Shown: positions 14,550-31,703, numbered from the stretch's first letter. The stretch is DNA of 60,469 nucleotides from Candidatus Omnitrophota bacterium (GCA_047639455.1 JBLINS010000004.1:1-60469), one strand, 5' to 3'. Program-made: numbers and translations. The notes: generated by a model from the letters alone, not told the origin.

Positions 14550-15011
14550 TTATCCAATACGCATCATTTCTGGACCACACCGTGGGCAAAATTGTCTTTG
14601 ATTAGCCGGGCCCCTGGTTTGCCAAGAGCAAACCTGGCATTGAAAGGTGCCTTGATTATTTTGGCCCCTAGACTGCATCGGCATACCCTGCGTAGGCCAA
14701 GACTGCTGCAATTGCATATTTCCTTGCATATTATTTTGCATAGGCATTTGTTGGAATTGCATATTATTTTGCATACGACGACGCTGATTAACCATGGCCA
14801 CATTCTGCATACCCGGCGATGTCGTCATAGTAGGTAATCCTGCAGGGGGTGCCGGCATGGGTAGTAATACCGTTGTCAATACTGCCACGGCCGCACACGT
14901 ACCTATGCCTAATACCCAGATCTTGGCTATGCCTGTTTTGGTGCATTGACTAGGGCAGGCGCCACAACCGGTTGGCCCGCATGATTTATGATCTTTGGGA
15001 TCTGTCTTCAT
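14550..15011 (-). CDS. Membrane-anchored protein: N-terminal Cys cluster, 1 TM, M/Q/N-rich linker, C-terminal Cys4 ribbon
   Basis: CGPTGCGACPSQC before the TM; CQVC...CPRC at the C-terminus. Confidence 0.7.
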   Translation of the reverse strand: MKTDPKDHKSCGPTGCGACPSQCTKTGIAKIWVLGIGTCAAVAVLTTVLLPMPAPPAGLPTMTTSPGMQNVAMVNQRRRMQNNMQFQQMPMQNNMQGNMQLQQSWPTQGMPMQSRGQNNQGTFQCQVCSWQTRGPANQRQFCPRCGPEMMRIG

Positions 15012-15013
15012 AA

Positions 15014-15970
15014 TTATCTAATCCTTTGCATATTAGCGCCACATTGTTGACATTGCGGCGTTTGACCCATTGGGCCCATGGCTTTATTCGAGCATTGTGG
15101 GCATTGGAATTGAGCCTGCATTTGAATATTATTTGGATTGGCAAAAGCCATGGGAGCAGGTGCTAGCTTCCTTCTAACCGGGGGCGTGATCGGGCGAACA
15201 TTATTTAATTCTCCCTCACCAACCTTAATTTGAACCGTTTGAATATCACCTTGTCGCATTATCACCATGGGGTATGTGCGCTCATTGCGGACCATACGAA
15301 CCATGCTTTGTAACCCTTGCGGACCTTGTGTCACGCGTTTTTTATTAAAACGCAGTATGATATCATTACGTTTAAGTCCAGCTTTGGCACCCTTAGAATT
15401 TCCCATAACACCACTCACCACTGCTTGCCCGGAACCCAACGACTTAACTTCAATGCCAAATTCGCGTATCAATAAAGGTCGCGAACCTTGTTGTCCAGAT
15501 CTTCTAGTTAAAGATTGTTGCGGCGCGAGATTAGGATTGGCCATCATCATGGATTGTGGATTAGGTTGCATTGGCGACATCATATTGGGCATGGCATTGG
15601 TATTTTGTTGCATCAAGCGTTGCTGCGCTTGCAGGTTTTGTAAAAGCATTTGTTGCTGTTGCGCAGGATTCGTTTGCATGGGTTGATTAGACATCATATT
15701 GGGCTGCATGGGCATATTCATGGCCACGGGATTCGCATTTTGTATGGGCTGATGCAAATTACGTGACTGCATATATTGCAAAGTCCCGGATTGAATATGT
15801 GTAGGTATGCCACCCGCTCTATTTTGTTGCATCTTAACTGACGGGTTCATGCCGGCAAACGGATCACCACTCACTCTAGCGCGAGCCGAGCCAATGGCCA
15901 TACCAATCACCAAAACCAAAACCGTAACACCTATGCCACCAGCAATCATCAATATACGTTTGTCACCCAT
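15014..15970 (-). CDS. Membrane-anchored PDZ protein with M/Q/N-rich linker and C-terminal Cys4 ribbon (MamE-Cter-like)
   Basis: N-terminal TM; PDZ EFGIEV...AKAGLKRNDIILRFN; CPQC...CQQCG. Confidence 0.75.
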   Translation of the reverse strand: MGDKRILMIAGGIGVTVLVLVIGMAIGSARARVSGDPFAGMNPSVKMQQNRAGGIPTHIQSGTLQYMQSRNLHQPIQNANPVAMNMPMQPNMMSNQPMQTNPAQQQQMLLQNLQAQQRLMQQNTNAMPNMMSPMQPNPQSMMMANPNLAPQQSLTRRSGQQGSRPLLIREFGIEVKSLGSGQAVVSGVMGNSKGAKAGLKRNDIILRFNKKRVTQGPQGLQSMVRMVRNERTYPMVIMRQGDIQTVQIKVGEGELNNVRPITPPVRRKLAPAPMAFANPNNIQMQAQFQCPQCSNKAMGPMGQTPQCQQCGANMQRIR

Positions 15971-15989
15971 AATAATATCCTATTAAACC

Positions 15990-16157
15990 TTAAGCTGATC
16001 GACCAAGTAAATAATAAAGCACAAGTCCTAGGACTGGCAAGAATATAATCAATAATATCCAAAGAACTTTTTTTACTGTGTCATGGTTACCCTTAACAAT
16101 GTCAAATATAGCTAATATATTTAATACAAAAACCACAAATCCAAGAATAACACCCAT
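15990..16157 (-). CDS. 55-aa PLDc_N-like membrane hairpin protein (missed by ORF track)
   Basis: Manual translation MGVILGFVVFVLNILAIFDIVKGNHDTVKKVLWILLIIFLPVLGLVLYYLLGRSA; RBS aaggag; K.LW...I..LP.LG..LY...GR is the PLDc_N (PF13396) signature. Confidence 0.85.
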   Translation of the reverse strand: MGVILGFVVFVLNILAIFDIVKGNHDTVKKVLWILLIIFLPVLGLVLYYLLGRSA

Positions 16158-16180
16158 TTCTTCTCTCCTTTATCTATTTA

Positions 16181-17146
16181 CTAAATAAACAACTTCACGG
16201 CAAAAATAAAAATCACAATAACAAATAAATACATAATGAGTTTAGAATTCAACTTAGGCGCCAACCAAGCGCCTGCTTGTGCGCCGACCACAACGCCGAG
16301 ACCCATCCACAAAGCCTCACCCACATAAACATTATCAAAGAATAAATGTGGCATCACAGCAATGGCGCAAGTCAACATAGTGATGAAATGACTTGTGGCC
16401 GTTGCTATATGCGGCGGATAGCGTAATAAGAATAAAAGAATTGGCACTTGAAAGACACCGCCACCTATGCCTAAAAAACCGACAAAAAAGCCTAATAATA
16501 AATTCATGTATACGCCCAATTTATCATTGGACGCATAATTGAATTTGAGCCCAAAGTGATCAATGACGGATACGCGCCTATGGCTTGCTGGAGCATCTTT
16601 AATTTCTCTAGTTGTTTGCGCTTCGCGCATTTTACGAATACCAATGATGCAATAGACGGCCAGGAGTAACAAGAATACGCCAAAAATGATATTGAACATG
16701 CGTATATTGAAGTGATGATGCACCAACCCTGATAGCACAGCGCCCGGAAGTGCCGCTAAGGAAAATTTAACACCACCTCTATAGTCGATTCGTTTTTGAA
16801 CCGCATAACCAATAGAACCTGAGAACGCGTTTAAGAAAACAATCATCAAGGATGTTGCAACTAAGAATTCATTTTCCCAACCATAGAAGAAATACAGTAT
16901 GGGCACAATTAAGGGGCCGCCACCTATGCCGACAATGGTTCCATAACAACCAATGGCCACACCAATCAGCACAATCATCATAACGGATGGCACATGTACG
17001 GTTAAGCCGGATGGACCAAAAGCGCCTTGAGACGGGGCTTCAAACATTGCGATAATGCAAAGCAGGAGCAATACCGTGCTCATTACCGTCACCAATTTAT
17101 TTTTTTGATATGTATTGACTATATTATCGAAGTATTGTTTTAGCAT
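16181..17146 (-). CDS. mamO: TauE/SafE-family transporter, MamO-Cter
   Basis: Duplicated GIGGG..VP.L motifs, A.ATS; no N-terminal protease domain; located in the MGC. Confidence 0.8.
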   Translation of the reverse strand: MLKQYFDNIVNTYQKNKLVTVMSTVLLLLCIIAMFEAPSQGAFGPSGLTVHVPSVMMIVLIGVAIGCYGTIVGIGGGPLIVPILYFFYGWENEFLVATSLMIVFLNAFSGSIGYAVQKRIDYRGGVKFSLAALPGAVLSGLVHHHFNIRMFNIIFGVFLLLLAVYCIIGIRKMREAQTTREIKDAPASHRRVSVIDHFGLKFNYASNDKLGVYMNLLLGFFVGFLGIGGGVFQVPILLFLLRYPPHIATATSHFITMLTCAIAVMPHLFFDNVYVGEALWMGLGVVVGAQAGAWLAPKLNSKLIMYLFVIVIFIFAVKLFI

Positions 17147-17147
17147 A

Positions 17148-18983
17148 TTAAGACACTATCGGCAGAGAGCACAAAAATATAATATAAATAGTTGAAATAA
17201 AGAGCATAACGCCAGCAACGGGGGCACCAATGCGTGAATAAGCTCCAAAAGTTAATAAGTATTTTTTAGTCGCCTTAAGCCCATAAATGGGGTCTTCCTC
17301 AGTTATTGTTTGAGTCACAATTCCTGCTGTAGCACCTGTCAAAGTCGCTGATGACCCGACAAGTATACCCAGTGCCAAAGCCCACCAAACTATATCACTT
17401 GAAGATGCGAATGGGGATTGCATTACAACGGGTATGAAGAAAACGGATGCAGGACCGGCGTTTAAGAAGGCGGTGACTAAAGCCACACCCCAAAGCAAAT
17501 AAACGGTGTACAAATATCGATTAGCCCCTGCCACGCCATCCAATAAACCAGATACCTTTTCAAGCAAACCTGAATGCAAGGCGCCACCTACCAATATAAA
17601 TAAGGCGATAAAAAATATAATGTCTATGAAGCTGATTTGTTTAATGACATCGGCTATATCTTTGCGATTCAAAGCTAATAAAAGAAAACCGCCACCCAAA
17701 GTGATGGTTGCCGCTCCTAGTCCAAATGCTGGTAAAAAAATGAGGCATAAAATAACTATGCTTAATATAAAGAGCACTTGGTGAACAGCCGGCCAATCCA
17801 TATTAAGATCATCAATATCTTTAGATAATTTATTTAAAAATGCTCTATTGAGTTCTGGAGATTTAATGCGGGGTAACTTAGAAAATTCTGTCCATCTCAA
17901 ATACCAAAATAAAGAGGCTAAGAGAATGGCACATATAGGCATCATGAAAATAAGGAAGTCCATGAATTGCAAGCCTGTATTCGTCGATATCACAATATTC
18001 GGAAAGTCCCCGATCATGGTCGAGGCACCGCCTATATTAGAGGCAATGATTTCGGCGACTAAAACCGGTACAGGTGGTAATTTCATTTCATGACAAAGCC
18101 CTAAGGTGATGGGAATAATGACTAATATCGTCGTTAGATTATTCATGAGCATCGAAAGTACGTATGTTAATAAACACAAGCCGATAATGGCATGCATACT
18201 CTGCCCCTTAACCAATATCACTAGCGACTTGGCCGCATAATCAAAGAATTTGAGCCGTCCCAGAATAATAGAAAATATACTCATACCAATCAAGATTAAA
18301 ATCGGGCTCATTTGAATAGCCGCAAAGGCCTTGCTTTGATTATAAAAGCCAATCAAGGAACCGCATGCCAGCATTAATACAGCGCCCATAACCACACAAA
18401 TTAAACGATTGAATACATTCAGGAATAAACACGTGAATGTCAGCGCGAATATTCCAATCACTACCATGGAACTAACTACCGTGGGGCGGAACAAGCCATC
18501 AATGGTTGAGGGATAAGGAATAGTTGTGCGCATTCGATGCATTTCTCCCCCGCGAAATATGGAGAATTGCACTTTCTCCCCCGGCTTGCTTTGTGACATC
18601 AAGTGACCGAGGTGATGAGCTGATTGAATTTGTATGGCATTATATTTTTTGATAATATCGCCACGCTTAAGCCTCACTAAACGACGGGCTGATCCAGTTG
18701 GTATTTCATTCACCAATACACCCGTATGGTCAGCTAAACCAAATTGCTTGGCTATAACCCAATCGACATCCACCACATTCAATTCTAAGACTTGCGCAAA
18801 TCCCGTGGTGCGCACATGGGCGCTATGCCCTGCCCGACTCAAATGCTGACCAGCCAATAAAGCCACAATAATTAGCGTAAGTAAAAAAGCAACACCCGCT
18901 AAGCTATAAATGGGCTCATCAGCGATGAACTCCTTTAAAGTGCGTTGTTTGCGTTTTAGTTGACTGGGTTTTTTGACGGCCAT
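17148..18983 (-). CDS. mamN: PDZ domain fused to an SLC13/ArsB-NhaD permease, MamN-like
   Basis: TM, then PDZ (RLKRGDIIKKYN...IFRGG), then a permease with NNLTTIL, ASNIGGASTMIGDFPNIV, TAFLNAGP. Confidence 0.65.
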   Translation of the reverse strand: MAVKKPSQLKRKQRTLKEFIADEPIYSLAGVAFLLTLIIVALLAGQHLSRAGHSAHVRTTGFAQVLELNVVDVDWVIAKQFGLADHTGVLVNEIPTGSARRLVRLKRGDIIKKYNAIQIQSAHHLGHLMSQSKPGEKVQFSIFRGGEMHRMRTTIPYPSTIDGLFRPTVVSSMVVIGIFALTFTCLFLNVFNRLICVVMGAVLMLACGSLIGFYNQSKAFAAIQMSPILILIGMSIFSIILGRLKFFDYAAKSLVILVKGQSMHAIIGLCLLTYVLSMLMNNLTTILVIIPITLGLCHEMKLPPVPVLVAEIIASNIGGASTMIGDFPNIVISTNTGLQFMDFLIFMMPICAILLASLFWYLRWTEFSKLPRIKSPELNRAFLNKLSKDIDDLNMDWPAVHQVLFILSIVILCLIFLPAFGLGAATITLGGGFLLLALNRKDIADVIKQISFIDIIFFIALFILVGGALHSGLLEKVSGLLDGVAGANRYLYTVYLLWGVALVTAFLNAGPASVFFIPVVMQSPFASSSDIVWWALALGILVGSSATLTGATAGIVTQTITEEDPIYGLKATKKYLLTFGAYSRIGAPVAGVMLFISTIYIIFLCSLPIVS

Positions 18984-18993
18984 TATGTTTTAT

Positions 18994-19761
18994 TTATCTC
19001 AATATGGGTGTTTCTTCGGAATAATGCACACGATTAAATAGCCTCACATCAGCATCAACTTGAACATAGGGGTATTCTTTAAAGCCAAATATGAAAGCAA
19101 ATAGCTTTTGAGGCACTTGACGAATATAAGTCCCATAAATATTACAGGCATTATTATAAGCCATGCGACGTTCTACAATTTTGTCTTCAATATTAATCAA
19201 AGCATCCATTAACTTCTGAAAATTACCACTGAGTTTGAGTTGCGGGTAATTCTCAGCCAAAGCCATTAAGCTGCCTAACATACCTTCTAAAGAAGCCCCT
19301 TTAACACCTTTAACGTCCCCTGCACCCACCTTTTTTAATAAGCCCTGTAATCCCTTTTGTTGTTCAGCACCCAAACTGCCTATCATGGCTTTAAGGGATT
19401 CTTGAGGATTGGCCTTGGCCGAACGTGTGTCGGATATATAGCGAAATAGTCGGCTTTCATGCGTGCTATAGTCCATGACTGTTTTAGAGAGATTAACAAT
19501 CAAATCTTTACGCCGCTGCAAATGTGCCTCGATTTGAGCCTGCTCAGTGTCCACCTGCGTTTGCATGGTCACGAATTGATTATAAAAATAAATTGCATAA
19601 ACAGCCATCACAAAAGTAAGCAATGCCGCAGCCCAAAGCTTCCAGCCATCAACCACAGGCATCCAATCAATGCGTTGCCACCAATGGTCCTTAACCGGTA
19701 CCAATTCCTCAAATTCATTGGGGAACATTTTTTTGATGGTTTCAGAAATACGGTTCGGCAT
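18994..19761 (-). CDS. mamQ: LemA-family magnetosome protein MamQ
   Basis: TM, YNQFV, LQRRKDL, AENYPQLKLSGNFQKL, ERRMAYN...FP-type LemA motifs; lies between mamA and mamN-like. Confidence 0.9.
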   Translation of the reverse strand: MPNRISETIKKMFPNEFEELVPVKDHWWQRIDWMPVVDGWKLWAAALLTFVMAVYAIYFYNQFVTMQTQVDTEQAQIEAHLQRRKDLIVNLSKTVMDYSTHESRLFRYISDTRSAKANPQESLKAMIGSLGAEQQKGLQGLLKKVGAGDVKGVKGASLEGMLGSLMALAENYPQLKLSGNFQKLMDALINIEDKIVERRMAYNNACNIYGTYIRQVPQKLFAFIFGFKEYPYVQVDADVRLFNRVHYSEETPILR

Positions 19762-19762
19762 A

Positions 19763-20560
19763 CTATTTACTTTCTTTCTCTAATTCCATGGCTTTTCTAA
19801 AGCATGCAATAGCATCTTTATGATTGCCCTGATTCTCAAATACAAAACCCAAAGCATGGTAATACAAAGGGTCCCGAGGCTCTAAATCAATGGCCTTACG
19901 ATACTTTTCGGCGGCCAAAACAGGTTTTTCTGTTTTTTCTAGAGCTGAGCCCCAATAATAGTAATTAGAGGCGTTTTCCTTTTCTGGAACTAAGTCGATT
20001 AAACGCTCAGAATATGGCACCATTTCAGCATAGCGCTCGAGCTTGAATAGGCATTGTATGATTTCGGCGATGATATCGGCATTATCGTCACCGACATTTT
20101 CTGATTTTTGCAAACATTCCAAGGCCTCTTCATGGTCTTCCATATGAGCATAGGTTAGACCAAGGTAATAAAGCGTTTCTTGATCTTCCTCATCCTCATG
20201 CTCAATAGCTTCGAGTAAGTGCTCATTAGCTCTTTTGATATCACCTTTTTCAAAAGACTTAATGCCTCTTTCTTTATGAAAACCAACATCAACAGCTTCA
20301 TCAACCACAAAGACATTCTTATAACTATTGATTAGGCCATTGGATATTCTATCCGATATTTCAAGCATGGCTTGAATAGCATGCCCCACTTTGTCTTGAG
20401 GCGTATGTGTGGATCTCTTTTGAACTTTGGCCTTAAGTACATCCGTCTGGCCATTTGCATGATTTTTGACTAAACGGCTTTTGGTCTCAGCTTTTTTTGT
20501 TTTAACTTTTGTATTGCTATGGTCGTGATCATGGTCGTGATCATGGTTGTGCTTACTCAT
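19763..20560 (-). CDS. mamA: TPR protein MamA with N-terminal His-Asp repeat
   Basis: About five TPRs (RGIKSFEKG, YYLGLTY, YYWGSAL, YHALGFVF); adjacent to mamB and mamQ. Confidence 0.85.
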   Translation of the reverse strand: MSKHNHDHDHDHDHSNTKVKTKKAETKSRLVKNHANGQTDVLKAKVQKRSTHTPQDKVGHAIQAMLEISDRISNGLINSYKNVFVVDEAVDVGFHKERGIKSFEKGDIKRANEHLLEAIEHEDEEDQETLYYLGLTYAHMEDHEEALECLQKSENVGDDNADIIAEIIQCLFKLERYAEMVPYSERLIDLVPEKENASNYYYWGSALEKTEKPVLAAEKYRKAIDLEPRDPLYYHALGFVFENQGNHKDAIACFRKAMELEKESK

Positions 20561-20656
20561 AATTTAACTCCTACAATTCTCTCTTGAAGAACAACTTTGA
20601 TATTGATTCTAAAATGAATCGACTACCTAAAATAATGCCTCCGTTTAATGATGAGT

Positions 20657-21568: not shown

Positions 21569-21589
21569 ATCACATCCTTAAACGTACTA

Positions 21590-22477: not shown

Positions 22478-22479
22478 CT

Positions 22480-22770
22480 TTAGTGGTGATGACTTTCTTC
22501 TTCAATTAAGTCATCTTCATCATGGTCATCATGATCATCATGATCGTCATGGCCATGATCCATTATATGATCGAACTTCCTATATAAAAGAGCGCCAATA
22601 CAAGCACCCAAAAAAAGTGCGATAATTAATACTGCACTCATCGAAACATGATACGGTGGCCCAAATGGAAACTGTATCACCGTCGGCCGCCAATTCTGCG
22701 CAAAAAACATGGCCACCAATGCCCAAAATATCAAATAAAAGAATAACTTAAGCCAAGTCCAAGTCTTCAT
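22480..22770 (-). CDS. MamL/LapA-like 2-TM protein with His/Asp-rich C-terminal tail
   Basis: F..QN...V...F...-..S...V....LFLG..IG pattern of LapA/DUF1049 and MamL; tail HGHDDHDDHDDHDEDDLIEEESHHH. Confidence 0.65.
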   Translation of the reverse strand: MKTWTWLKLFFYLIFWALVAMFFAQNWRPTVIQFPFGPPYHVSMSAVLIIALFLGACIGALLYRKFDHIMDHGHDDHDDHDDHDEDDLIEEESHHH

Positions 22771-22817
22771 GCTTTAAACTCGCGTCATTACACGAAATGC
22801 GTCCTGGCTTTCACTCC

Positions 22818-22958: not shown

Positions 22959-24071
22959 TCACCTCAAAATCACGTGGCAATTCTTGCATTTGCCTCTGTC
23001 TTCATGAGGCATGACCGCATCACGCATAATTGGTGGTGCCGTGGGTAATAAATCGCCCATATCAACCGCTAATTGCCCACCAGTACGCATAATAATATGA
23101 CAAGCCGTACAAGGTTTGTCCATTTTTCTATGCGGACTAATAGCGCCTGGTGGAATTGGCGAAGCGGCTTCATTTTGCGAAAAACCCAAAGTACGCTTGG
23201 AAGCCATGGTCAAGTTCAATAATTGACCTTTACGTGATATCAAAAGCTGGGCCTTGCGTTGATTCTTAACTTTACGAGTACCTTCAGTGAATAGGCGTAA
23301 ATCAGGAGTCGCTATACCATTCACAGCCAAGACAACATCGCCAGCCAAGAAGCCTGATTCAGCCGACTCTAAAGAAACCTCATCCACCAAAACACCCTTG
23401 GTATTCTCGGGAACGCCATTCATACGGGCCAATTGGGCTACTAAAGGAATTAATTCCATGCCCAACCAATGGCCTTCACTTAATATTTTGTCAGCTGCAT
23501 TTTGCTCGAGCGGTGTGGGTAACGGCGCTTGGGGCGTTTGCATGGCTATAGTCACCATGCCATTACCCCTATTACTAGGAATCATAACAGGCATAGCCAC
23601 ATGACCACCCGTGACAATTTTTTCTCTTAATACTTGACTGATTTTATTATGCGCTTTTTTGTGAAAAGAACGATGGTCTTTAATTGTGACAAAGAGTGGT
23701 TTTTTATTACGAATAAGGTCAACAAATACACCTTCCTCAATATCCAAATCTTTTGTCGCACTAAGAAAGTCGCGTATATTCCTAATAGGCCGTCCATTAA
23801 AAGATTTAATCAAATCACCTTGGCGTATGCCAGATTTATAACTGGGGTTATCAGCCCAGCTAACCACAACACCTTTTTCATCAATAGGCACATTGAATTC
23901 ATTAGCGAGCCTAAAACTTGAATTAGAAACTAATAATCCCGCCCATTTGGCTTCACCGACACCAAAACGCATCAAACTCGCCACAAACAATAAGGCCAAT
24001 GCGGTGACGATCACCACAATGATGAGTCTATTATTCCGTGAATCACTTTTACCAAATTTGTTATCAGCCAT
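22959..24071 (-). CDS. mamP: Magnetosome protein MamP (TM, two PDZ, two magnetochromes)
   Basis: EGHWLGMELIPL PDZ; magnetochromes PIPPGAISPH...CTACH and PPIMRDAVMPHEDRGKCKNCH. Confidence 0.93.
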   Translation of the reverse strand: MADNKFGKSDSRNNRLIIVVIVTALALLFVASLMRFGVGEAKWAGLLVSNSSFRLANEFNVPIDEKGVVVSWADNPSYKSGIRQGDLIKSFNGRPIRNIRDFLSATKDLDIEEGVFVDLIRNKKPLFVTIKDHRSFHKKAHNKISQVLREKIVTGGHVAMPVMIPSNRGNGMVTIAMQTPQAPLPTPLEQNAADKILSEGHWLGMELIPLVAQLARMNGVPENTKGVLVDEVSLESAESGFLAGDVVLAVNGIATPDLRLFTEGTRKVKNQRKAQLLISRKGQLLNLTMASKRTLGFSQNEAASPIPPGAISPHRKMDKPCTACHIIMRTGGQLAVDMGDLLPTAPPIMRDAVMPHEDRGKCKNCHVILR

Positions 24072-24079
24072 GTATGAAA

Positions 24080-24448: not shown

Positions 24449-24627
24449 TGCGCTTCATCATGTTGCAATTCCTCTAGATCTGAATCTTTGGTGCGAGCAC
24501 CTTTGCGTTTCACTTTACGTTTGGCTTGTGTTTCTTTCCAATCATCATTGGGGCATTCACGTTTGAACATAATGCCTCCCACAGCCGTCAAACCAAGCAC
24601 AAGAATGGTCATGGTTAATGGGTCCAT
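24445..24627 (-). CDS. 60-aa single-TM protein with basic then acidic tail
   Basis: Overlaps its neighbours in operon fashion; TM followed by KRKVKRK and DSDLEE. Confidence 0.6.
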   Translation of the reverse strand: MDPLTMTILVLGLTAVGGIMFKRECPNDDWKETQAKRKVKRKGARTKDSDLEELQHDEAH

Positions 24628-24630
24628 GGT

Positions 24631-26292
24631 TTAACGCATTGATGCTTCTGTTTTGGCAACCGTACTACTGGCTGCACATGGTTGACCATTGACTTGATGA
24701 CAAGTCGCACATTTGCCACGCCATCCATGCGGCATTGGCGTATTGCAATTAATTGTCGGCAGGCCTCCGCCTGCACCACCAAATAGATCACTCAAAAAAC
24801 CCACATTTTGCATTTGCGCTTCATTAGCTCTGCGTCTTTCCTGACGCTCCATAATTGGCAAAGTTTGAGCAACGGTCATTTGACCTCTATTACCTGTCAT
24901 TTGAGCTACAGGTGTTCCCGTAGCGCAAGGCGCATCCAGAATTTGATGACAATTGGAGCAATTACCACGCCATCCATGCGGCATAATGGAATGACAAGTG
25001 ATTATAGGTGCGCCACCCAAAGCGATATTTTGCATATTGCCACCAAGATTTTCGGCTTGCATACGTCTATTTTGATTAATGTCCATCATACCTGCATTAA
25101 TACCAGCTTGAGATGTTTGAGCACCTGGGCTACCAGCTGGGCATGGGCCATCACGGAATTGATGGCAATTCTGACAAGCGCCACGCCATCCATGCGGCAT
25201 ACGTTTATTACAACTAATCGTGGGCGCTCCGCGCAAAGCCATATTTTGCATGGCAACCATATTCATATTACTCGAAGTTTGTGCGCCCGGAGAGCCTGCT
25301 GCGCATGGGCCGTCCCTGAATTGATGGCAATTCTGACAAGCGCCGCGCCATCCATGTGGCATACGTTGATTACAACCAACAGTTGGCGCACCTCCCATAG
25401 CAATATTTTGCATACCTCTATTTTGATTCATGGGCTCTTGGCGATTTTGATTATTATTCATGGGCCGAAGTTGATTTTGCATAGTTGTTCCACATAATGA
25501 ACAGCGCGGATTAGGCCAGACATTATTATTCTCTACGCGTAGTTTCCAACCGCATGTTGGGCAAAAAAAGTTCTTACGATCCAAATTCATATCATTGGCC
25601 ATCATAGCGTTTTGCTGCTGCATCATTGGGAATGATTGAGTGGGAGGCCCTAATTGAGGAGAAGCATTGGCAAAACCTTGCAATAAAGGATTCTGCATTG
25701 GAGCTATGGGTTGTTGCATGGGTTGCGGCTGAATCATAATGGGTTGATTCATGCGTCGATTTTGATTCACAACTTTAATGCCACCATCAATAGAGAATCT
25801 AGCTTGTCGGTACAAACTAAGGGCTTCTTTGACCTTGCCTTGATAACCGCCATAAGCGCGTATACCTGATTTGGTTAAGACATCATAAGCTTCTGGATTA
25901 ATACTACCGGCAATGACAGCGTCCTCTCCAAGTCCCGCGACAAAATAGGCCATTTGCGAAGAAGGAATCAACATACCCGCATAGGGGTTTTTGATTGATT
26001 CAATGAGTTTATTCCACTCGGGATTAATGACTAAATAATTCGTGGCCTGCGCCAAAGATAATGCGACATTCGAACGCATGGTCGGGCCATCAGCCGCAAC
26101 CACTACCCTGCCGCCGCCAACTGTATTAGCATCGGGATTATTTTTGTTGGGCGAATATAGGGCTAAGAGGCCTATGCCCAATACAAGCACAATGGCGCCG
26201 AATATATAAAACGCATTCAAGTCAGTTGTGTGCAAACGATTCTTAAAATCTTCTAGAGAAACTTCCGCTTTATTTTTGGATTTTTTTGCCAT
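24631..26292 (-). CDS. TM, NifX/NifB-like (Nitro_FeMo-Co) domain, Cys4 ribbon, four magnetochrome-like CxxCH repeats
   Basis: VVVAADG...YLVIN...IKNP...DAVIAGSINP.AY..L..SGI..Y..G.VKEAL; four P.I.C...MPHGWRG.C..CHQ...PC repeats. Confidence 0.8.
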   Translation of the reverse strand: MAKKSKNKAEVSLEDFKNRLHTTDLNAFYIFGAIVLVLGIGLLALYSPNKNNPDANTVGGGRVVVAADGPTMRSNVALSLAQATNYLVINPEWNKLIESIKNPYAGMLIPSSQMAYFVAGLGEDAVIAGSINPEAYDVLTKSGIRAYGGYQGKVKEALSLYRQARFSIDGGIKVVNQNRRMNQPIMIQPQPMQQPIAPMQNPLLQGFANASPQLGPPTQSFPMMQQQNAMMANDMNLDRKNFFCPTCGWKLRVENNNVWPNPRCSLCGTTMQNQLRPMNNNQNRQEPMNQNRGMQNIAMGGAPTVGCNQRMPHGWRGACQNCHQFRDGPCAAGSPGAQTSSNMNMVAMQNMALRGAPTISCNKRMPHGWRGACQNCHQFRDGPCPAGSPGAQTSQAGINAGMMDINQNRRMQAENLGGNMQNIALGGAPIITCHSIMPHGWRGNCSNCHQILDAPCATGTPVAQMTGNRGQMTVAQTLPIMERQERRRANEAQMQNVGFLSDLFGGAGGGLPTINCNTPMPHGWRGKCATCHQVNGQPCAASSTVAKTEASMR

Positions 26293-26310
26293 TATTAACC
26301 TTAATTAAAA

Positions 26311-28083
26311 TTAACCATTATTCATCATAGGGTCCCTATCTCTATGGACCATATTCATTTTACATTTGGGGCATACTGGATGGATGCCCATATCATTATT
26401 AATACTTAGCTGCCACCAACACTGTGGGCATACCAAAACGCGATCACGTCGCATTTCTGGCATTAAGCCATGTTGCATCAGAATGTTTCCATCAATATTT
26501 AAATTGTCTTGCATACCACCTCTAAACATCGGCCCAGCCTGTTGTCGATGAATTAGTATTGAGCCGTCAAAAGAGCATAGTGGGTGAACACCCATATCAT
26601 CATTGACACTCAAGCGCCATGAACAAGTTGGGCAAACCAAATTACGATCTTGGATATCCTCCCATATGCCATTATTGCCATTAATGCCATTCAGGCTAAA
26701 GCGTCCACCTCTATCATTATTGTTCATACCCATCATCATATTCATATTCAAATTATTCATATTATTCATGGGGCTAGTCGGCATATTTTGCATAGAATTC
26801 ATAGTAAAATTATTATTCGACATAACGGGCGCATTTTGCATAGCATTCATATTCATTGAATTAACACCCATGCCATTCATTGGCATATTATTGGTATTCA
26901 TCATATTCATATTGCCACCCATACCCATATTCATGCGCCGCCCCATGCCCACGTTTTGCATATTCATGGGTTGCATAGCCACATTTTGCATGCCGAGAAC
27001 ACGTCTATTTGGGTCCATGACGATTTGATCGCGGCCTTTGCCTGTGATGCCAAGTGCAGTGTCCATTTGATTTCCGTCCAAACGTTTTTGATTCTGTAAG
27101 GCCATATTTTGCATATTCGCATTATTGTTGCCACGCATATCCATATTCATGGGTTGCATAGCCATATTTTGCATATTATTATTGTTGCCACGCATATCCA
27201 TATTCATTGGTTGCATAGCCATATTTTGCATATTCATATTCATGGGTTGCATGCCCATATTGGGCATCGCTCCTCCCCGGCCAAACATGGCTAGGGTTTC
27301 GCGATGAATCATAGTCGTATTACAGCGCGGGCAGGCTGGATGTATGCCTTGATCGTCATTGACACTTAATCGAAATAAACATTGGGGACAAACCAGCATT
27401 TTGTCGCGTCTTGGATGCATCATCATATTCGTATTTGGAACCGGCTGCATGGGTGTTTGAATACCATTGGGATTGCCCATATGCGCATGCATTGCATGGG
27501 GATTCATGCCATTATTGCTTTGCACATTACCTAAACTAGTATGACCAGTAACATTGCGATGTTTGAGCACATATATTCGGATGGCTTGTTTCGCAGGCCC
27601 TGTATAACCCGCATGTACGCCCAAGCCTGATTGAGTCAAAATTTGTTGTGATTGGGGTGCAATTGAACCTGCAAGGACAGCTTCCTCTCCCATGCCACTA
27701 ACCAATATAGCCACTTGTTGAGGATTTGTGGGTGTATTAGCATAAGGGTTTTGAACAGCTTCGATGAGCTTAAAGGTATCTGGGTCAACTAACAAATAAT
27801 ATTTGGCTTGTGACATGATTGGCGCCACGGCGGAACGTAAAGATGGGCCATTCGCAGCTATCACAACAGGCTTTGAGTGACGAGCAATAGGATTGCTACC
27901 TTTTTGGGGTCCATAAAAAAATAAAAAGGCCAAGCCAAGCACGAGACTTATGGATGCGACCATAATAAAGGTAGTCAAATCCCAAGTCTTGAATAAATGC
28001 CTCAATTCCTCAATGGATGCATGCGTTACCTTCTCCGTCTGAGGCTTATTTGAAGTATTAGTTTTTTTACGTTTAGTTGCCAA
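26311..28083 (-). CDS. TM, NifX/NifB-like domain, three Cys ribbons and long Met/Asn/Gln-rich tracts
   Basis: Paralog of the flanking genes; three LVCP.C..(R/Q)LS(V/I)N(D/N)D.G.HP.C repeats; 57-bp tandem repeat near 27105-27235. Confidence 0.8.
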   Translation of the reverse strand: MATKRKKTNTSNKPQTEKVTHASIEELRHLFKTWDLTTFIMVASISLVLGLAFLFFYGPQKGSNPIARHSKPVVIAANGPSLRSAVAPIMSQAKYYLLVDPDTFKLIEAVQNPYANTPTNPQQVAILVSGMGEEAVLAGSIAPQSQQILTQSGLGVHAGYTGPAKQAIRIYVLKHRNVTGHTSLGNVQSNNGMNPHAMHAHMGNPNGIQTPMQPVPNTNMMMHPRRDKMLVCPQCLFRLSVNDDQGIHPACPRCNTTMIHRETLAMFGRGGAMPNMGMQPMNMNMQNMAMQPMNMDMRGNNNNMQNMAMQPMNMDMRGNNNANMQNMALQNQKRLDGNQMDTALGITGKGRDQIVMDPNRRVLGMQNVAMQPMNMQNVGMGRRMNMGMGGNMNMMNTNNMPMNGMGVNSMNMNAMQNAPVMSNNNFTMNSMQNMPTSPMNNMNNLNMNMMMGMNNNDRGGRFSLNGINGNNGIWEDIQDRNLVCPTCSWRLSVNDDMGVHPLCSFDGSILIHRQQAGPMFRGGMQDNLNIDGNILMQHGLMPEMRRDRVLVCPQCWWQLSINNDMGIHPVCPKCKMNMVHRDRDPMMNNG

Positions 28084-28112
28084 AATAATTGATCCCTTTG
28101 TTTGTATTCTGA

Positions 28113-29333
28113 TTAACCATTGTTGTTGTTATTATTATTATTGTTTCGCATATCCATATTCATGGGCATCATAGCCATATTTTGCATATTGTTATTGTTA
28201 CGATTATTATTGTTGTTTCGCATATCCATATTCATGGGCATCATATTATTATTGGCACCCATACCTTGATTCATGCCATTTTGATTAATCATATTCTGAT
28301 GTACTGTGGGTATGCCACAAAATGGGCAGCGCACATGATTGCCTATATCATTCTTAACTTGAATTCTCCACATACAATTCGGACAAACTAAAGTCCTATC
28401 CTTAGGCGTTTCCATCATAGGCTGATTCATAGCCACATTTTGCATCATCATAGGTTGCTGCTGCATCATCATGGATTGTTGCTGAGCCATGCTTGGCTGA
28501 GGATTGGACCAACCATACAATAATGGGTTTTGTGTATTTGATGACATGCCATTGGGTTGCATATTATTCATACCCATAGTTGGTTGCTGCATCATTCCTG
28601 GCTGTTGCATCATGGCGTTAGGATTCATGGGCATGTTTTGATTGCCTCTATTGCCTCCAATACCGACTTGTACGCCGGCAAGATTGCCCGTAGGGAATTG
28701 TTGAGGAGATGTTTTGCGTACGACCAAATATAAGTCAATCGCATTTTTGGCTCGTCCCGTGTAACCGCCATAGGCATTAATTCCCGATTGACTAAAGGCT
28801 ACATTTGACTGGGGGTTGATGAAGCCAGCAAGTACAGCTTCTTCACCCAGGCCGGCAACAAAATAGGCCACCTGAGTCATGGGCACTTGTTTTCCAAAAT
28901 AAGGATTTTTGATGGCTTCTAACAAACGACCATTAGCCGGATCAACCACTAAAAAATATTTGCCCGTAGATAAAGTTGGGGCCACATTGGAGCGTAAGGC
29001 TGGACCCGTTGCTGCAACCACAATTCTTTGACCAGCGGCAGTGACCATGCGGCCATTTTTATGCGCGCCACCCACATGCGGGTGATAAATGGCCAATACG
29101 GCTATACCGAGAACCAAAATAACAGCGGCAAATATAAAGAAAGTGTTCATATCCCATTTTTGTAAACGGCCTTTGATCACGTCATAAGACGGACCAATTT
29201 TGTCGCTTACTTGCTCTTTGATTTTTCCAAAAGTTTCGCCAACGGCGCTCGCACTCAAATTCTCAGCAATGCGTTGGCTGGTTTTTTTTCTAGGTGCCCG
29301 GGATACTTTTTTTCTTACTTTTTTTGCAGCCAT
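28113..29333 (-). CDS. TM, NifX/NifB-like domain, Cys4 ribbon and Met/Asn/Gln-rich tail
   Basis: IVVAATGPALRSNVAP...YFLVVDP...AIKNPY...EAVLAG; CPNC...CPFC; 72-bp repeat near 28141-28245. Confidence 0.8.
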   Translation of the reverse strand: MAAKKVRKKVSRAPRKKTSQRIAENLSASAVGETFGKIKEQVSDKIGPSYDVIKGRLQKWDMNTFFIFAAVILVLGIAVLAIYHPHVGGAHKNGRMVTAAGQRIVVAATGPALRSNVAPTLSTGKYFLVVDPANGRLLEAIKNPYFGKQVPMTQVAYFVAGLGEEAVLAGFINPQSNVAFSQSGINAYGGYTGRAKNAIDLYLVVRKTSPQQFPTGNLAGVQVGIGGNRGNQNMPMNPNAMMQQPGMMQQPTMGMNNMQPNGMSSNTQNPLLYGWSNPQPSMAQQQSMMMQQQPMMMQNVAMNQPMMETPKDRTLVCPNCMWRIQVKNDIGNHVRCPFCGIPTVHQNMINQNGMNQGMGANNNMMPMNMDMRNNNNNRNNNNMQNMAMMPMNMDMRNNNNNNNNNG

Positions 29334-29378
29334 TTCATTCTCCTCGAAGAGATCGTCTATTGATAAAAATTAAATGCA

Positions 29379-29951
29379 TTAAACTTGTTTTTGTTGAGCT
29401 AAATTGCCTGAATTCAAAGCGCCATAATCATAACTAAAAGGCACGCTCACATAAATTCCGCGGCCATTGCGATATACATCTAAAAGAATGCCATCTTGAT
29501 AAGGTATTTGACTGGTGGCGGCCTCAAAAGTTTTGCCATTTGAAACTGGCATGTGATTAACTGCGCGAATCACATCAAACATTTGAACCGATTGTAATGC
29601 GGCTAAGCCGTATTGTTTGTCCAAGCCATAAACAAATACACCCTGTACTTCTCTGGGTATACCAAATTCTTTGCGCAATGTCCTACTCAGTGGCAATAAA
29701 TCAATGCCTAACCAACGCAAAGCCTTGCTGTTGGGCAAACGCTGACTTGCTGGCACAACATTCATCACTGGTACAGCCTGTCGACTTTGCCTCATTGTAC
29801 GCAAACCTCTCACAGCTGGACGCATTGATTGTGTCACAGCCAAAAAGTAAGTTAATGCCACCACAATCAAGACAACTAAAGCCGCATAAATGGGATAAGT
29901 CTTACAAAGTTTTTTGATTGTTTCAATCCATTCCATCAAAGTTTGCATCAT
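29379..29951 (-). CDS. Membrane-anchored single-PDZ protein (MamE-Cter-like)
   Basis: TM, then RWLGIDL...GVFV...FDVIRAVN...VYRNG; overlaps the mamE stop. Confidence 0.75.
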   Translation of the reverse strand: MMQTLMEWIETIKKLCKTYPIYAALVVLIVVALTYFLAVTQSMRPAVRGLRTMRQSRQAVPVMNVVPASQRLPNSKALRWLGIDLLPLSRTLRKEFGIPREVQGVFVYGLDKQYGLAALQSVQMFDVIRAVNHMPVSNGKTFEAATSQIPYQDGILLDVYRNGRGIYVSVPFSYDYGALNSGNLAQQKQV

Positions 29952-31390
29952 ATCAATTCTATCTTTCGCGTTATGGTTTGACCGTTTCTTAATATAATGA
30001 CATCAACCACATCACCAGCTTTAAAAGTTGGCAATATCATCGGTATATCTTGGGTTCGTTGAATGGGTGTATTGGCCAAGGATATAATCACATCCCCTCT
30101 TTGCAATCCGCCAATTGCCGCAGGACTATTATCAATGACGCGATTAATCACAACACCTTCTGAGAGAGGTGCATTCAATTGCCGAGCCATAATACTATCC
30201 ATGGTTAGTCCCTCAACTCCAAACTGAACCGGCTTGGTGGGCGCCATCGCTTGCGCTGTTTGGTTATTACCAAAGAATTGCCCAAATAATGGGAACTTCG
30301 CTTGTTGAGGTCCGTAATTAGTTCCTAATTGTGTGCCAATGAATTGCTTGGCGTCATTAATCGGTATGGCAAAACCTGTACCATTAAAAAAACCATTGGG
30401 TGCATAAATGGCTGTATTCACACCAATGACTTCGCCATCCATATTCACCATGGGGCCACCTGATGATCCGCGATTAATCGGTGCATCGGTTTGAATTAAG
30501 TGGTCATACCTCACACCATCAATGCGTGTTGATTTGCGTATACCGCTGACAATACCGCTAGTCACGGTTTGATGCATGCCAAAGGGACTGCCAATGGCAA
30601 TCACAAAGTCAGCTGTTTGTAAGGCATCCGAATTACCAAAACGCGCTGGTGGAATTCGACTACCCGCTTGAATTTTGATCAAAGCCAAATCGCGGGTTGG
30701 GTCATGTGCTATAAATTCTGCGACATAATCACGATCAATTTTGCCAGGCACGGTGACACGGATATTTCTAGCGTTTTTGACCACATGGTAATTCGTGAGG
30801 ATATACCCACGTGCATCAAAAAAAGTGCCTGCACCTATATTTTCGAAGCCTTGATTATCAATAAATTTATCTATAGTGCCATCAAATGGTTTGACGAATT
30901 GGGGGTCTTGTGGATTTGTTGGAGTGGTGGGCGTGTTTTGCTGAACCCACATAGCGTGTATGTCCACAACAGATGGCAAGGCTGTATTGACTGCATCCTT
31001 GAGTGCGTTTTGTAAACCAATATGACCTTGTTGTTTAGTTGCACCTTGAATAGCAACTGGTTGCATATTGGATTGCATGCCATTATTCATACCAGCAACT
31101 TGCCGCATAGCCACTTGTTGAAAGCTGCCATTATTTTGATTACGCAAAAGTGGTGAATTAACCGGGATGTTTTGAATGGGACTAGCAATCAAAGGTTGAA
31201 CTGGCACGGCAACCAAAGGTTGTGTTTGAGCGGCAGTTGCGTCAACAGCACCAAATAACAGGTGATCACCCTGTAATACACCCCAACCTACAATGGCAAC
31301 TAATAGCAAAGACAACACAATTATCCAAGGCTTTTTGGGCTTATCGCAAAAGAAATCGTCTTCGTGAACTTGTTCGCTAAATCGTGACAT
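29948..31390 (-). CDS. mamE: HtrA-type magnetosome protease MamE (TM, trypsin, PDZ)
   Basis: Intact triad TNYHVV, DLAL, GSSGGP; TDAPIN; C-terminal PDZ; context next to mamI. No CxxCH in this chain. Confidence 0.88.
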   Translation of the reverse strand: MSRFSEQVHEDDFFCDKPKKPWIIVLSLLLVAIVGWGVLQGDHLLFGAVDATAAQTQPLVAVPVQPLIASPIQNIPVNSPLLRNQNNGSFQQVAMRQVAGMNNGMQSNMQPVAIQGATKQQGHIGLQNALKDAVNTALPSVVDIHAMWVQQNTPTTPTNPQDPQFVKPFDGTIDKFIDNQGFENIGAGTFFDARGYILTNYHVVKNARNIRVTVPGKIDRDYVAEFIAHDPTRDLALIKIQAGSRIPPARFGNSDALQTADFVIAIGSPFGMHQTVTSGIVSGIRKSTRIDGVRYDHLIQTDAPINRGSSGGPMVNMDGEVIGVNTAIYAPNGFFNGTGFAIPINDAKQFIGTQLGTNYGPQQAKFPLFGQFFGNNQTAQAMAPTKPVQFGVEGLTMDSIMARQLNAPLSEGVVINRVIDNSPAAIGGLQRGDVIISLANTPIQRTQDIPMILPTFKAGDVVDVIILRNGQTITRKIELI

Positions 31391-31415
31391 TAATATTTAT
31401 TCTCAAACTCCAAAA

Positions 31416-31703
31416 TTAAAAAACCAAAACATCTGGATTGTTATTTGTCTGTCCTGAAATAGGATTTGTCAAAGCTACATGTTGCATATTAGCTGCGTCA
31501 GGTTTTGGTGTCGCATGTCCCCCGCCACCGCCATGATCAGCAGCTCCAGCCGTAATCACATTTTGAACTGACGAAATAGAAAGTTCGCGTCCACTACTCA
31601 CATAAGTGATAGCCAAAATAATTAAGCTGGCACCCAAAATCCATAATAACCCTATCCACGCATTCCAGCAGGTGTCAGGGTCCTTTAGTTTCATAGCAGG
31701 CAT
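31416..31703 (-). CDS. 95-aa single-TM protein ending in -VLVF
   Basis: TM, Gly/His linker DHGGGGGH, NMQHVAL; lies between mamI and mamE. Confidence 0.65.
   Translation of the reverse strand: MPAMKLKDPDTCWNAWIGLLWILGASLIILAITYVSSGRELSISSVQNVITAGAADHGGGGGHATPKPDAANMQHVALTNPISGQTNNNPDVLVF

Follow-up and report, generated by a model that had tools for sequence, protein, structure and literature searches.

In Magnetospirillum magneticum AMB-1, MamE promotes the processing of MamE, MamO and MamP (bioRxiv 10.1101/047555), in agreement with what a sequence-only reading of the present locus had held. The sole mapped MamE site is ...PQTQTV↓AAGS in MamO (Hershey et al. 2016, bioRxiv 10.1101/047555). 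The fluorogenic peptide TQTVAAGS is cut by MamE in vitro (bioRxiv 10.1101/047555), and a peptide of the MamO site stimulates MamE autoproteolysis. MamE-dependent cleavage also frees soluble MamP from its membrane anchor, and MamE itself is trimmed domain by domain in a MamE-dependent manner. The PDZ domains of AMB-1 MamE prefer internal over C-terminal peptides, and peptides that bind them activate the protease. The peptides obtained for these domains by phage display are WSQEMEDWFWQMPLSG and MEDYGIFMTSPEGPWA. E. coli DegP has a strong P1 preference for Val, Ala, Thr or Ile (PMC3195437), which matches the taste for small aliphatic P1 residues that the same reading ascribed to HtrA proteases.

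The window analysed here, the whole stretch of 60,469 nucleotides, contains a magnetosome cluster with its own MamE-type protease. The catalytic residues His202, Asp234 and Ser310 are invariant in a 91-sequence alignment, and the predicted triad is intact. The NCBIfam MamE model scores 251 bits on this protein, below the equivalog cut-off of 800 because the heme units and the second PDZ domain are absent.

Copies of the motif in the window

The motif MQN(V/M/I)A(M/L), claimed earlier to recur in many cluster proteins, is borne out. The strict pattern MQN[VMI]A[ML] matches ten times in four magnetosome-cluster ORFs, always on the minus strand, and a search of all six frames across the 60 kb shows none outside these four ORFs. 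Composition-preserving shuffles of eight proteins (whole or in 20-60-residue blocks, 5000 trials) gave a mean of 0.003-0.014 matches, with a maximum of 1. The instances listed in the sequence-only reading, including the variants in MamE and ORF 31416, were all found on the minus strand of the ORFs named for them, while MQNVGF, MQNVGM, NPVAM, PMAFANP, GHVAM and TIAMQ had been overlooked. Two window copies carry Gly in place of the conserved Ala. The copies and the genes for their putative readers are as follows.

14793-14810, minus strand: MQNVAM (GMQNVAM), ORF 14550-15011
15134-15154, minus strand: PMAFANP, second copy of the generalised core, ORF 15014-15970
15719-15733, minus strand: NPVAM, generalised core, ORF 15014-15970
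23538-23552, minus strand: TIAMQ, linker of the MamP-like ORF 22959-24071
23592-23606, minus strand: GHVAM, linker of the MamP-like ORF 22959-24071
24796-24813, minus strand: MQNVGF, variant, ORF 24631-26292, upstream of magnetochrome core 4 (24697-24732)
25018-25035, minus strand: MQNIAL (NMQNIAL), ORF 24631, before magnetochrome core 3 (24946-24981)
25234-25251, minus strand: MQNMAL (AMQNMAL), ORF 24631, before magnetochrome core 2 (25162-25197)
25396-25413, minus strand: MQNIAM (GMQNIAM), ORF 24631, before core 1 (25324-25359), at a position common to three NifX-like paralogues
26944-26961, minus strand: MQNVGM, variant, ORF 26311-28083
26974-26991, minus strand: MQNVAM (GMQNVAM), ORF 26311-28083
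27097-27237, minus strand: three repeat copies, unit NNNNMQNMAMQPMNMDMRG, 57-bp tandem repeat of ORF 26311
27097-27114, minus strand: NMQNMAL, ORF 26311, in the tandem repeat
27157-27174 and 27214-27231, minus strand: NMQNMAM twice, ORF 26311, in the tandem repeat
28170-28187, minus strand: MQNMAM (NMQNMAM), C-terminal tail of ORF 28113-29333, related to the ORF 26311 repeat unit
28428-28445, minus strand: MQNVAM (MMQNVAM), ORF 28113-29333, 12 residues before the zinc ribbon
29379-29951, minus strand: membrane-anchored stand-alone PDZ protein, overlapping the end of mamE by 4 nt and kept in related clusters
29948-31390, minus strand: MamE-type HtrA protease (membrane helix, linker, trypsin-like domain, one PDZ)
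31049-31066, minus strand: MQPVAI (NMQPVAI), MamE N-terminal linker
31088-31105, minus strand: RQVAGM, MamE N-terminal linker
31106-31123, minus strand: FQQVAM, MamE N-terminal linker, between membrane helix and protease domain
31470-31487, minus strand: MQHVAL (NMQHVAL), tail of the small single-pass ORF 31416-31703

In the protein of ORF 14550-15011, a Cys cluster and a single membrane helix are joined by a Q/N/M-rich linker to a zinc ribbon at the C-terminus. Its N-terminal part is similar to two proteins (P0264 and P0286) that both carry 3-4 copies of QxVA[FL] before magnetochromes. ORF 15014-15970 combines a membrane helix, a Q/N-rich linker, a PDZ domain and a zinc ribbon. Across the cluster ORFs the generalised core has a density of 3.14 per 1000 residues, against 0.56 in the other ORFs of the window; the comparison set for MGC specificity was about 10.6 k residues of non-cluster window ORFs together with flanks of related loci.

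The copies represent roughly 4-7 independent contexts. Three lie within the 57-bp (19-aa) tandem repeat of ORF 26311 (27101-27237, 93% matches), and those before the magnetochromes of ORF 24631 are duplicates of a single module. Behind the first zinc ribbon, one copy occupies the same position in three adjacent NifX-like paralogues; of the 12 columns there in which all three agree, five are the motif itself. The motif Ala is encoded by GCT in 8 of the 10 copies, against a background of 35%, which suggests common ancestry of the copies. The tandem repeat, the codon bias, the presence of three NifX-like paralogues where relatives have one, and the composition of the carriers (6-14% each of Met, Gln and Asn) would all suit a low-complexity by-product, in which replication slippage and gene conversion spread one oligopeptide among the three paralogues and other M/Q/N-rich proteins, and which would act at most as a prion-like self-association 'sticker'. 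We consider this origin quite improbable. The motif is carried by non-homologous proteins, its DNA flanks differ between contexts, it is directional, with the reversed pattern depleted in MamP linkers, and it is kept at aligned positions in orthologue linkers of another composition.

Conservation in related clusters

In 20 syntenic MamE-containing clusters, mostly from Candidatus Omnitrophota, five protein families share a consensus Q-x-(V/I/A)-A-(F/M/L) at aligned positions: MamE (in its N-terminal linker), the MamP-like proteins (in the linker ahead of the PDZ domains), the NifX-magnetochrome proteins (among other places just ahead of the magnetochrome unit), the small membrane protein that follows MamI and the PDZ protein that follows TauE. 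The MQN-V/I/M-A-M/L form of the window is a local, sharpened version of this broader consensus. The linkers of the orthologues are rich in Ala, Gly, Pro and Gln and free of Met/Asn runs, and the motif is kept in them though the rest cannot be aligned.

Orthologues of the small protein (70-81 aa, 20 related loci) mostly have AAVQ[AV]AFP at the place of MQHVAL. The ORF 31416 protein and its orthologues also end in a conserved K-[LFV]-x-F. MamE orthologues carry V[TQ][QP]AA[FMY], AAITKATPNGG and GGMQLVAN at the aligned linker positions; AAITKATPNGG is part of a longer conserved block, which may have a structural role of its own. In MamP-like orthologues Q[AVI]AFANRSPAETAEAG stands at the place of the window motif, and a relative with 84% identity retains GHVAL and VTIAMQTP. 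In orthologues of ORF 15014 (L024/L025) the stretch that links the membrane helix to the PDZ domain contains LQQVAMPG, LTQIAFPN and GNPVAIDP. In relatives, strings of the QTVA type occur in MamP linkers (AFQTVAL, AFQTVAV) and in a MamE linker (NMQTVAN). The putative P1 residue of the orthologues is mostly V, I or A, and one relative (P0254) has Leu or Val in place of the conserved Ala (QPVLFG, QPVVFG).

Shuffle tests, which treat orthologues without regard to shared ancestry, place these matches above chance. The core is present in 18 of the 20 NifX-magnetochrome orthologues, with 29 matches against about 4 in shuffles, and in 9 of 13 it precedes the first magnetochrome (0.24 expected). MamP-like pre-PDZ linkers from several phyla contain [AVI]A[FML] in 91 of 113 proteins, against 25 in shuffles and only 6 for the reversed pattern. 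Upstream of the heme units of 47 diverse magnetochrome proteins, a preset pattern (that of the sequence-only reading plus the MamO site) matched 6 times where 1.1 were expected (P ~0.0007); the dipeptide VA was found 56 times (31 expected) and AV 30 times (31 expected). A test on seven canonical MamE proteins is not evidence: conserved strings of the catalytic domain raised its reversed-pattern control too. The motif is non-random and directional, lies outside recognised domains and is conserved in position in five protein families of many genomes.

Placement relative to folded domains

The motif had been said to sit just before folded modules, and it does so at the magnetochromes, the zinc ribbon of ORF 28113 and the MamE protease domain. 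In every carrier the motif follows a single N-terminal membrane helix, and it probably shares the lumenal or periplasmic compartment of the c-type heme and protease domains. All listed instances are outside Pfam domains. In the MamP-like protein, the GHVAM/TIAMQ region (23538-23606) is directly upstream of the MamP-homologous part, of which residues 180-369 align to MamP 4JJ0. The MamE linker (residues 47-118) has an AlphaFold2 pLDDT below 50, and the model of ORF 24631 is too poor beyond residue 274 to place the motif beside the heme units. As is typical of a short linear motif (SLiM, 3-10 residues), the motif is short, forms conserved islands in variable flanks and is shared by non-homologous carriers, with disorder indicated by the MamE model and weakly by that of ORF 24631.

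The magnetochrome repeat MCR (PF18509) is known from MamP, MamE, MamT and MamX. The motif precedes four of the four heme units of ORF 24631 as well as heme units in many other magnetochrome proteins. In ORF 24631, 12 residues separate the motif end from the PH of three magnetochrome cores; a motif ending at residue 425 is 3 residues before the Pfam MCR match, which begins at residue 429. In most NifX-magnetochrome orthologues, too, the first heme unit follows the motif, and xVA-x is enriched ahead of the heme units of diverse magnetochrome proteins. This arrangement would suit an N-terminal extension of the magnetochrome module, copied with the heme unit and serving a structural or redox role such as packing on the heme or a partner, with the other occurrences coincidental. 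However, the spacing from the motif to APPI, with which the heme unit starts, ranges from about 2 to over 20 residues, the motif is beyond the Pfam MCR model and the second unit of tandem pairs lacks it. It is also conserved where there is no heme unit: in ORFs 26311 and 28113, in the tail of the small protein, and in the linkers at the N-terminus of MamE and ahead of the PDZ domains of MamP-like proteins. We judge such an extension highly improbable, and the motif as an integral part of PF18509 was rejected given its position outside the model, the variable spacing to the heme unit and its presence without heme.

The LPXTG/sortase, PEP-CTERM/exosortase and GlyGly-CTERM/rhombosortase systems likewise combine a short motif in many proteins with a clustered protease gene. 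Their tripartite signals stand at the C-terminus, where a membrane helix and a basic tail follow the motif. The present motif is internal, often repeated and preceded by an N-terminal helix. A C-terminal sorting signal of the sortase or exosortase type was rejected, as the single helix is N-terminal and the motifs are internal and repeated. The proposal of a sorting signal in the sequence-only reading is unsupported in general, because the motif is internal and every carrier is already N-terminally anchored. A canonical C-terminal PDZ ligand, with a free hydrophobic residue at the C-terminus, was rejected as well, all motif copies being internal, in contrast to the conserved K-[LFV]-x-F end of the ORF 31416 protein; the motif could turn into such a ligand only once cut.

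Recognition and cleavage by MamE as a candidate function

We assign a probability of about 0.45 to the reading that the motif would be a recognition and cleavage signal for the MamE HtrA/PDZ machinery, as judged from sequence comparison. The motif resembles the MamO cut site and is kept in a looser form in relatives, making it a candidate MamE recognition code; with one mapped MamE site, the resemblance rests on a single example. Both have a Gln two residues before an aliphatic residue followed by Ala, in a lumenal inter-domain linker of a magnetosome protein. MQNV-AM-G and the MamO site have in common Q at -2, V, A and a following G, and some relatives show the identical QTVA core. In both systems a presumably active MamE is encoded in the same cluster, that of the window being recognised by its catalytic residues. 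The AMB-1 MamP cut region corresponds to the linker that bears the motif in MamP-like proteins, and the places at which AMB-1 MamP and MamE are cut are the kinds of places where the motif occurs; both correspondences support the cleavage reading.

There are also differences from the MamO system. The conserved Ala is followed by Ala in MamO, in contrast to a bulky hydrophobic residue (M/L/F) here, where many copies per protein are spread over at least five families and the cluster encodes TauE but no MamO protease domain. The putative P1 is often Met: with a cut before Ala, the ten strict copies would have V in 3, I in 2 and M in 5, and Met is absent from the DegP preference. The cleavage or activation code put forward in the sequence-only reading stands in part, favoured by the MamO-site resemblance, the MamP-linker location and the orthologue islands, and weakened by Met at half of the strict sites (5/10).

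A putative P1 that is often aliphatic, unstructured segments and a PDZ protease are shared with HtrA, DegP and DegS, whose peptides are both substrate and activator, a likeness that may extend to the motif by analogy. DegP has little specificity past P1 and degrades unfolded proteins, whereas a defined motif of 5-6 residues is found at fixed places here. Its conservation at specific positions implies site-specific processing or docking, not bulk quality control.

The likeliest reader of the motif would be the MamE HtrA protease of the same operon, cutting after V/I/M and before the conserved Ala. Such cuts would detach folded modules from their anchors in the membrane and also from one another; the modules concerned are the protease domain of MamE, the core of MamP, zinc ribbons and individual magnetochrome units. 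If the MamO peptide of Magnetospirillum is a guide, linkers with the motif would also stimulate MamE, and multi-copy proteins would serve as substrate-activators in a switch-like processing step. The stand-alone PDZ protein (29379-29951) is an alternative candidate reader.

Arrays of 4-5 copies without an intervening module are found in ORF 26311 and in a related locus (L008, 1294-2127). Such arrays are not explained by module release, and docking or activation fits them at least as well. They would also suit the avidity of an internal PDZ docking site that is bound and never cut. The resulting multivalent network would serve to assemble or concentrate the redox proteins at the magnetosome membrane, or to gate MamE allosterically. 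The cluster has at least six PDZ domains (MamE, the stand-alone protein, two in the MamP-like protein, PDZ-CitMHS and ORF 15014) for more than 20 motif copies, and PDZ domains are unusually frequent and conserved in related clusters. The motif is a short strand-like run with alternating hydrophobic residues, and the internal-peptide preference and activation described for AMB-1 MamE point in the same direction. However, the AMB-1 phage-display peptides are unlike Q-x-V-A-hydrophobic, and the AlphaFold2 model of MamE shows no linker motif docked on the chain's own protease or PDZ domain. Docking alone also leaves the likeness to a cleaved site and the mapped processing locations unexplained, and we regard it as rather unlikely. 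It is compatible with recognition and cleavage by MamE, because HtrA substrates can be both bound and cut. Examples of motif-type peptides are NRGMQNIAMGGAP and GAQQVAFQPG.

Magnetosome gene cluster of the window

The magnetosome gene cluster spans 9.8-32 kb of the window on the minus strand. The window itself derives from a metagenome. Twenty loci keep the gene order of the cluster, and all of them come from Candidatus Omnitrophota genomes except one from a Planctomycetales MAG and one short Planctomycetota MAG fragment. The 58-residue MamI gene lies below the 80-residue threshold of the ORF list. Its product scores 60 bits against the NCBIfam MamI model, below the cut-off of 80, and the orthologues match Pfam MamI.

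Cluster features in transcription order
first gene, minus: HTH regulator
31829-32005, minus: MamI, 58 residues
31416-31703, minus: small single-pass protein (ORF 31416)
29948-31390, minus: MamE-type HtrA protease
29379-29951, minus: membrane-anchored PDZ protein
ORFs 28113, 26311 and 24631, minus: three paralogues with a membrane helix, a NifX-like domain, zinc ribbons and Q/N/M-rich linkers
24631-26292, minus: third of these paralogues, with four magnetochrome heme units
next gene, minus: small zinc-ribbon protein
22959-24071, minus: MamP-like protein
downstream of the MamP-like gene, minus: two cation-diffusion facilitators (CDF), MamA, MamQ, a PDZ-CitMHS permease and TauE
ORFs 15014 and 14550, after TauE, minus: two Q/N-rich proteins
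last genes, minus: two further CDF-like proteins and MamK

Each of the 20 syntenic clusters contains one NifX-magnetochrome gene, whereas the window contains three adjacent paralogues (24631-29333, minus strand), in two of which the heme units were lost and Met/Asn-rich repeats and further zinc ribbons acquired. We know of no role proposed for a lumenal NifX-like domain in a magnetosome protein. The stop of mamE shares 4 nt with the start of the PDZ gene that follows it (29948-29951), which suggests translational coupling, and the two products, taken together, look like the canonical multi-PDZ MamE split in two. His/Asp-rich runs at the C-terminus of ORF 22480 (22480-22770, minus; DHGHDDHDDHDDHDEDD…HHH) and the N-terminus of MamA (19763-20560, minus; HNHDHDHDHDHS) are possible metal-binding tails. 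In the related locus L026 (11203-21168), heme biosynthesis and cytochrome c assembly genes directly follow the MamP-like gene (Pfam matches GlutR_N, Porphobil_deam, HEM4, ALAD, radical SAM/SPASM, NirdL-like_HTH and Cytochrom_C_asm), in the place of the CDF/MamA/MamQ block found elsewhere. The same arrangement is probably present in L009, L011, L015, L018 and L019.

A recurrent motif in the linkers of cluster proteins

The sequence-only reading had listed 13 MQNVAM-like strings in cluster proteins as a candidate MamE processing or sorting signal, and all 13 are present. In a six-frame translation of the window, the strict pattern MQN[VMI]A[ML] has 10 matches, located in only four cluster ORFs, and 0 elsewhere. 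The expectation is 0.003-0.014, with a maximum of 1 in 5000 shuffles of eight proteins, taken whole or in blocks of 20-60 residues. Copies beyond the original list include MQNVGF (before the fourth heme unit) and MQNVGM, NPVAM and PMAFANP in ORF 15014, and GHVAM and TIAMQ in the MamP-like protein. The generalised core has a density of 3.14 per 1000 residues in the cluster ORFs compared to 0.56 in other ORFs of the window. Candidate substrate peptides with the motif are NRGMQNIAMGGAP, NNNMQNMAMQPMN and GAQQVAFQPG.

The ten strict copies are not all independent: three lie inside a 57-bp tandem repeat (27101-27237), the copy following the first zinc ribbon is common to all three NifX-like paralogues, and the pre-heme copies of ORF 24631 are duplicated together with their module. 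Past the zinc ribbon the paralogues can barely be aligned, yet 5 of the 12 columns that stay invariant belong to M-Q-N-x-A-M. The motif Ala is encoded by GCT in the three listed variants and in 8 of the 10 strict copies, against a gene background of 35%, likely due to shared ancestry of the copies. The tandem repeat and the codon skew would fit a by-product of low complexity, or a self-association sticker, but this origin is improbable given that the motif is directional and conserved in linkers of quite different composition. A cause at the DNA or RNA level (a nucleotide motif or internal ATG starts) was rejected, as the Gln and Asn codons are at background usage and only Ala is skewed; internal translation starts would also leave the lumenal modules in need of export signals.

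All motif carriers are single-pass proteins, with one N-terminal helix and the motif C-terminal to it. This is the expected side of c-type heme attachment and of the MamE protease domain. All listed copies fall outside Pfam domains. In the AlphaFold2 model of MamE, two copies lie at pLDDT <50, past the membrane helix and ahead of the first protease-domain helix, and the linker motifs are docked nowhere. The model of ORF 24631, calculated without heme, is uninformative outside the NifX-like domain (pLDDT ~33) and of too low quality past residue 274.

The motif of ORF 24631 stops 3 residues short of the Pfam magnetochrome match, while the spacing to the heme unit in orthologues ranges from ~2 to >20 residues. 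Judged from this position outside the match and the variable spacing, the motif is an element separate from the heme fold. That it simply extends the magnetochrome module is quite improbable, since the spacing varies and conserved copies occur at places without heme units. The motif Met was also considered as a heme ligand and rejected, as relatives contain F or L at this position.

Conservation in related clusters and beyond

Comparison with relatives shows the window string to be one regional form of a broader motif, roughly Q-x-(V/I/A)-A-(F/M/L), that holds its aligned place in linkers which otherwise vary. For the small protein after MamI, AAVQ[AV]AFP stands in most of the 20 orthologues where the window has NMQHVAL. 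The N-terminal linker of MamE contains FQQVAM, RQVAGM and MQPVAI in the window, and V[TQ][QP]AA[FMY], AAITKATPNGG and GGMQLVAN in orthologues; parts of this pattern are retained in more distant MamE-like proteins. MamP-like orthologues have Q[AVI]AFANRSPAETAEAG directly upstream of the part aligning to the MamP crystal structure, and a MamP-like relative of 84% identity retains GHVAL and VTIAMQTP with changed flanks. In orthologues of the PDZ protein after TauE, the stretch linking the membrane helix to the PDZ domain contains LQQVAMPG, LTQIAFPN and GNPVAIDP.

The NifX-magnetochrome orthologues contain [QNP][VI]A[MLF] in 18 of 20 cases; the total of 29 matches compares with ~4 in shuffles (at most 14 in 2000). 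The motif typically reads TQVAFGQG in mid-linker and GNQVAMTQ ahead of the heme unit, and 9 of 13 pre-heme segments contain it (0.24 expected). Unassigned ORFs of the related loci have 0.23 matches per 1000 residues, as opposed to 2.3-2.9 in the two main families. A looser pattern, Q.[VI]A[FMLW], gave 14 matches in 66 k residues of related clusters and 9 in 37 k 'non-cluster' residues, of which 5 are in a misclassified second magnetochrome protein and 3 are the ABC-transporter signature LSGGQRQRIALARA. This apparent lack of enrichment was discounted because of the contaminated background and a shifted register, the relatives often having N-Q-V-A-M. The core was redefined after this result; later patterns are thus partly post hoc, and a pattern fixed in advance is reported alongside.

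No orthologue of ORF 14550 was found at the syntenic place in L024 and L025. The N-terminus of this ORF (14550-15011, minus), a Cys cluster followed by a helix, resembles by eye the magnetochrome-carrying proteins P0264 and P0286 and L008 1294-2127. Proteins of the P0264/P0286 type contain 3-5 copies of QxVA[FL] alternating with C..CP..[AS]QCFP, ahead of 2-3 heme units; this Cys-rich repeat is, to our knowledge, undescribed.

The motif extends beyond this cluster type. In 113 MamP-like proteins from several phyla, the pre-PDZ linker contains [AVI]A[FML] in 91 (for example NMQQVAMTAP, AFQTVAL and EQAAFAP), compared to 25 in shuffles (maximum 39) and 6 for the reversed pattern. In 85 pre-heme segments of 47 diverse magnetochrome proteins, collected by an exhaustive search, a broader pattern occurs 27 times (5.2 expected; reverse 4 against 5.2). 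All these tests, also those that follow, control for composition and ignore shared ancestry, and the broader patterns took shape with the data in view. The pattern fixed in advance, which combined the sequence-only reading with the MamO site, occurs 6 times in these segments against 1.1 expected (P ~0.0007), and the dipeptide VA 56 times against 31, compared to 30 against 31 for AV. In canonical MamE representatives, strings of the PVAA- or PVA[FMW]-type precede heme units and also lie at domain junctions, an observation that did not prove statistically sound; the enrichment test on seven canonical MamE proteins was dropped, as the reversed control was as high, through the catalytic strings QTDAAINRGNSGG and GFAVP.

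Candidate recognition by MamE

Proteolysis that depends on MamE acts as a checkpoint of magnetite biomineralisation. Attempts to map a cleavage site in MamD were unsuccessful. Only one MamE site has been mapped, …QTQTV|AAGS, which lies in the linker of MamO from Magnetospirillum magneticum AMB-1; the peptide TQTVAAGS is cut by purified MamE and stimulates its autoproteolysis (bioRxiv 10.1101/047555). In this strain, MamE-dependent cleavage frees the soluble part of MamP from its membrane anchor, and MamE loses its own C-terminal parts step by step until the protease domain remains (bioRxiv 10.1101/047555). At P1, DegP favours V, A, T or I (PMC3195437).

The MamO site and the window motif share a Q-x-aliphatic-Ala core, and some relatives have an identical QTVA. 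In MamP-like proteins, the motif lies in the linker corresponding to the region of anchor removal in AMB-1. The catalytic triad of the window MamE is intact. Together with the P1 preference of DegP and the processing places in MamP and MamE, this leaves recognition through the protease/PDZ machinery of MamE as the best supported reading: the motif is a putative recognition element, most simply a cleavage site, with a probability of roughly 45%. Against this reading, Met occupies the putative P1 position in half of the strict copies, and the Ala has exceptions (Gly in two window copies, Leu/Val in the related protein P0254). Arrays of copies without an intervening module are better explained by docking or activation than by module release.

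It is possible, if rather doubtful, that the motif is an internal PDZ docking site in a multivalent network, which would be compatible with recognition by MamE. The cluster encodes many PDZ domains, and those of AMB-1 MamE favour internal peptides, but the motif is unlike their phage-display peptides. A conserved K-[LFV]-x-F end is found in the orthologues of the small protein after MamI (L003-L022), with VLVF in the window (31416-31430). It resembles the C-terminal PDZ ligands that activate DegS (OMP YxF), and this protein could be a dedicated MamE/PDZ activator.

Tentatively, Q-x-(V/I/A/M)-A-hydrophobic might be a general MamE processing and activation code across magnetotactic phyla, marking lumenal domain boundaries. 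ORF 24631 would then be a polyprotein giving rise to single-heme magnetochrome mini-cytochromes, and multi-copy proteins (ORF 26311, the P0264-like family) substrate-activators that set the protease switch; we regard this joint reading as unlikely. If true, MamE substrates and cut sites would be predictable from sequence. A motif predictive of MamE action would make the substrate question testable with peptides, Magnetospirillum point mutants and heterologous Omnitrophota-type clusters, and offers a way to annotate the numerous unnamed low-complexity proteins that such clusters contain. Full-text literature searches yielded only Komeili-laboratory papers on MamE cleavage, and no description of a conserved MamE recognition motif. 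Protease or PDZ recognition motifs are known as a kind; what appears to be new is the motif itself, how widely it occurs and the conservation of its positions.

Heme units of ORF 24631 (24631-26292)
25324-25359, minus: first heme unit
25162-25197, minus: second heme unit
24946-24981, minus: third heme unit
24697-24732, minus: fourth heme unit

The four units share an extra Cys pair, located 6 residues before PH and 7 after the CxxCH His (6 intervening). The pair is absent from the Omnitrophota orthologues and present in P0254, a MamE-type protease fused to two Cys-pair heme units. Such units may represent a disulfide-clamped variant of magnetochrome.
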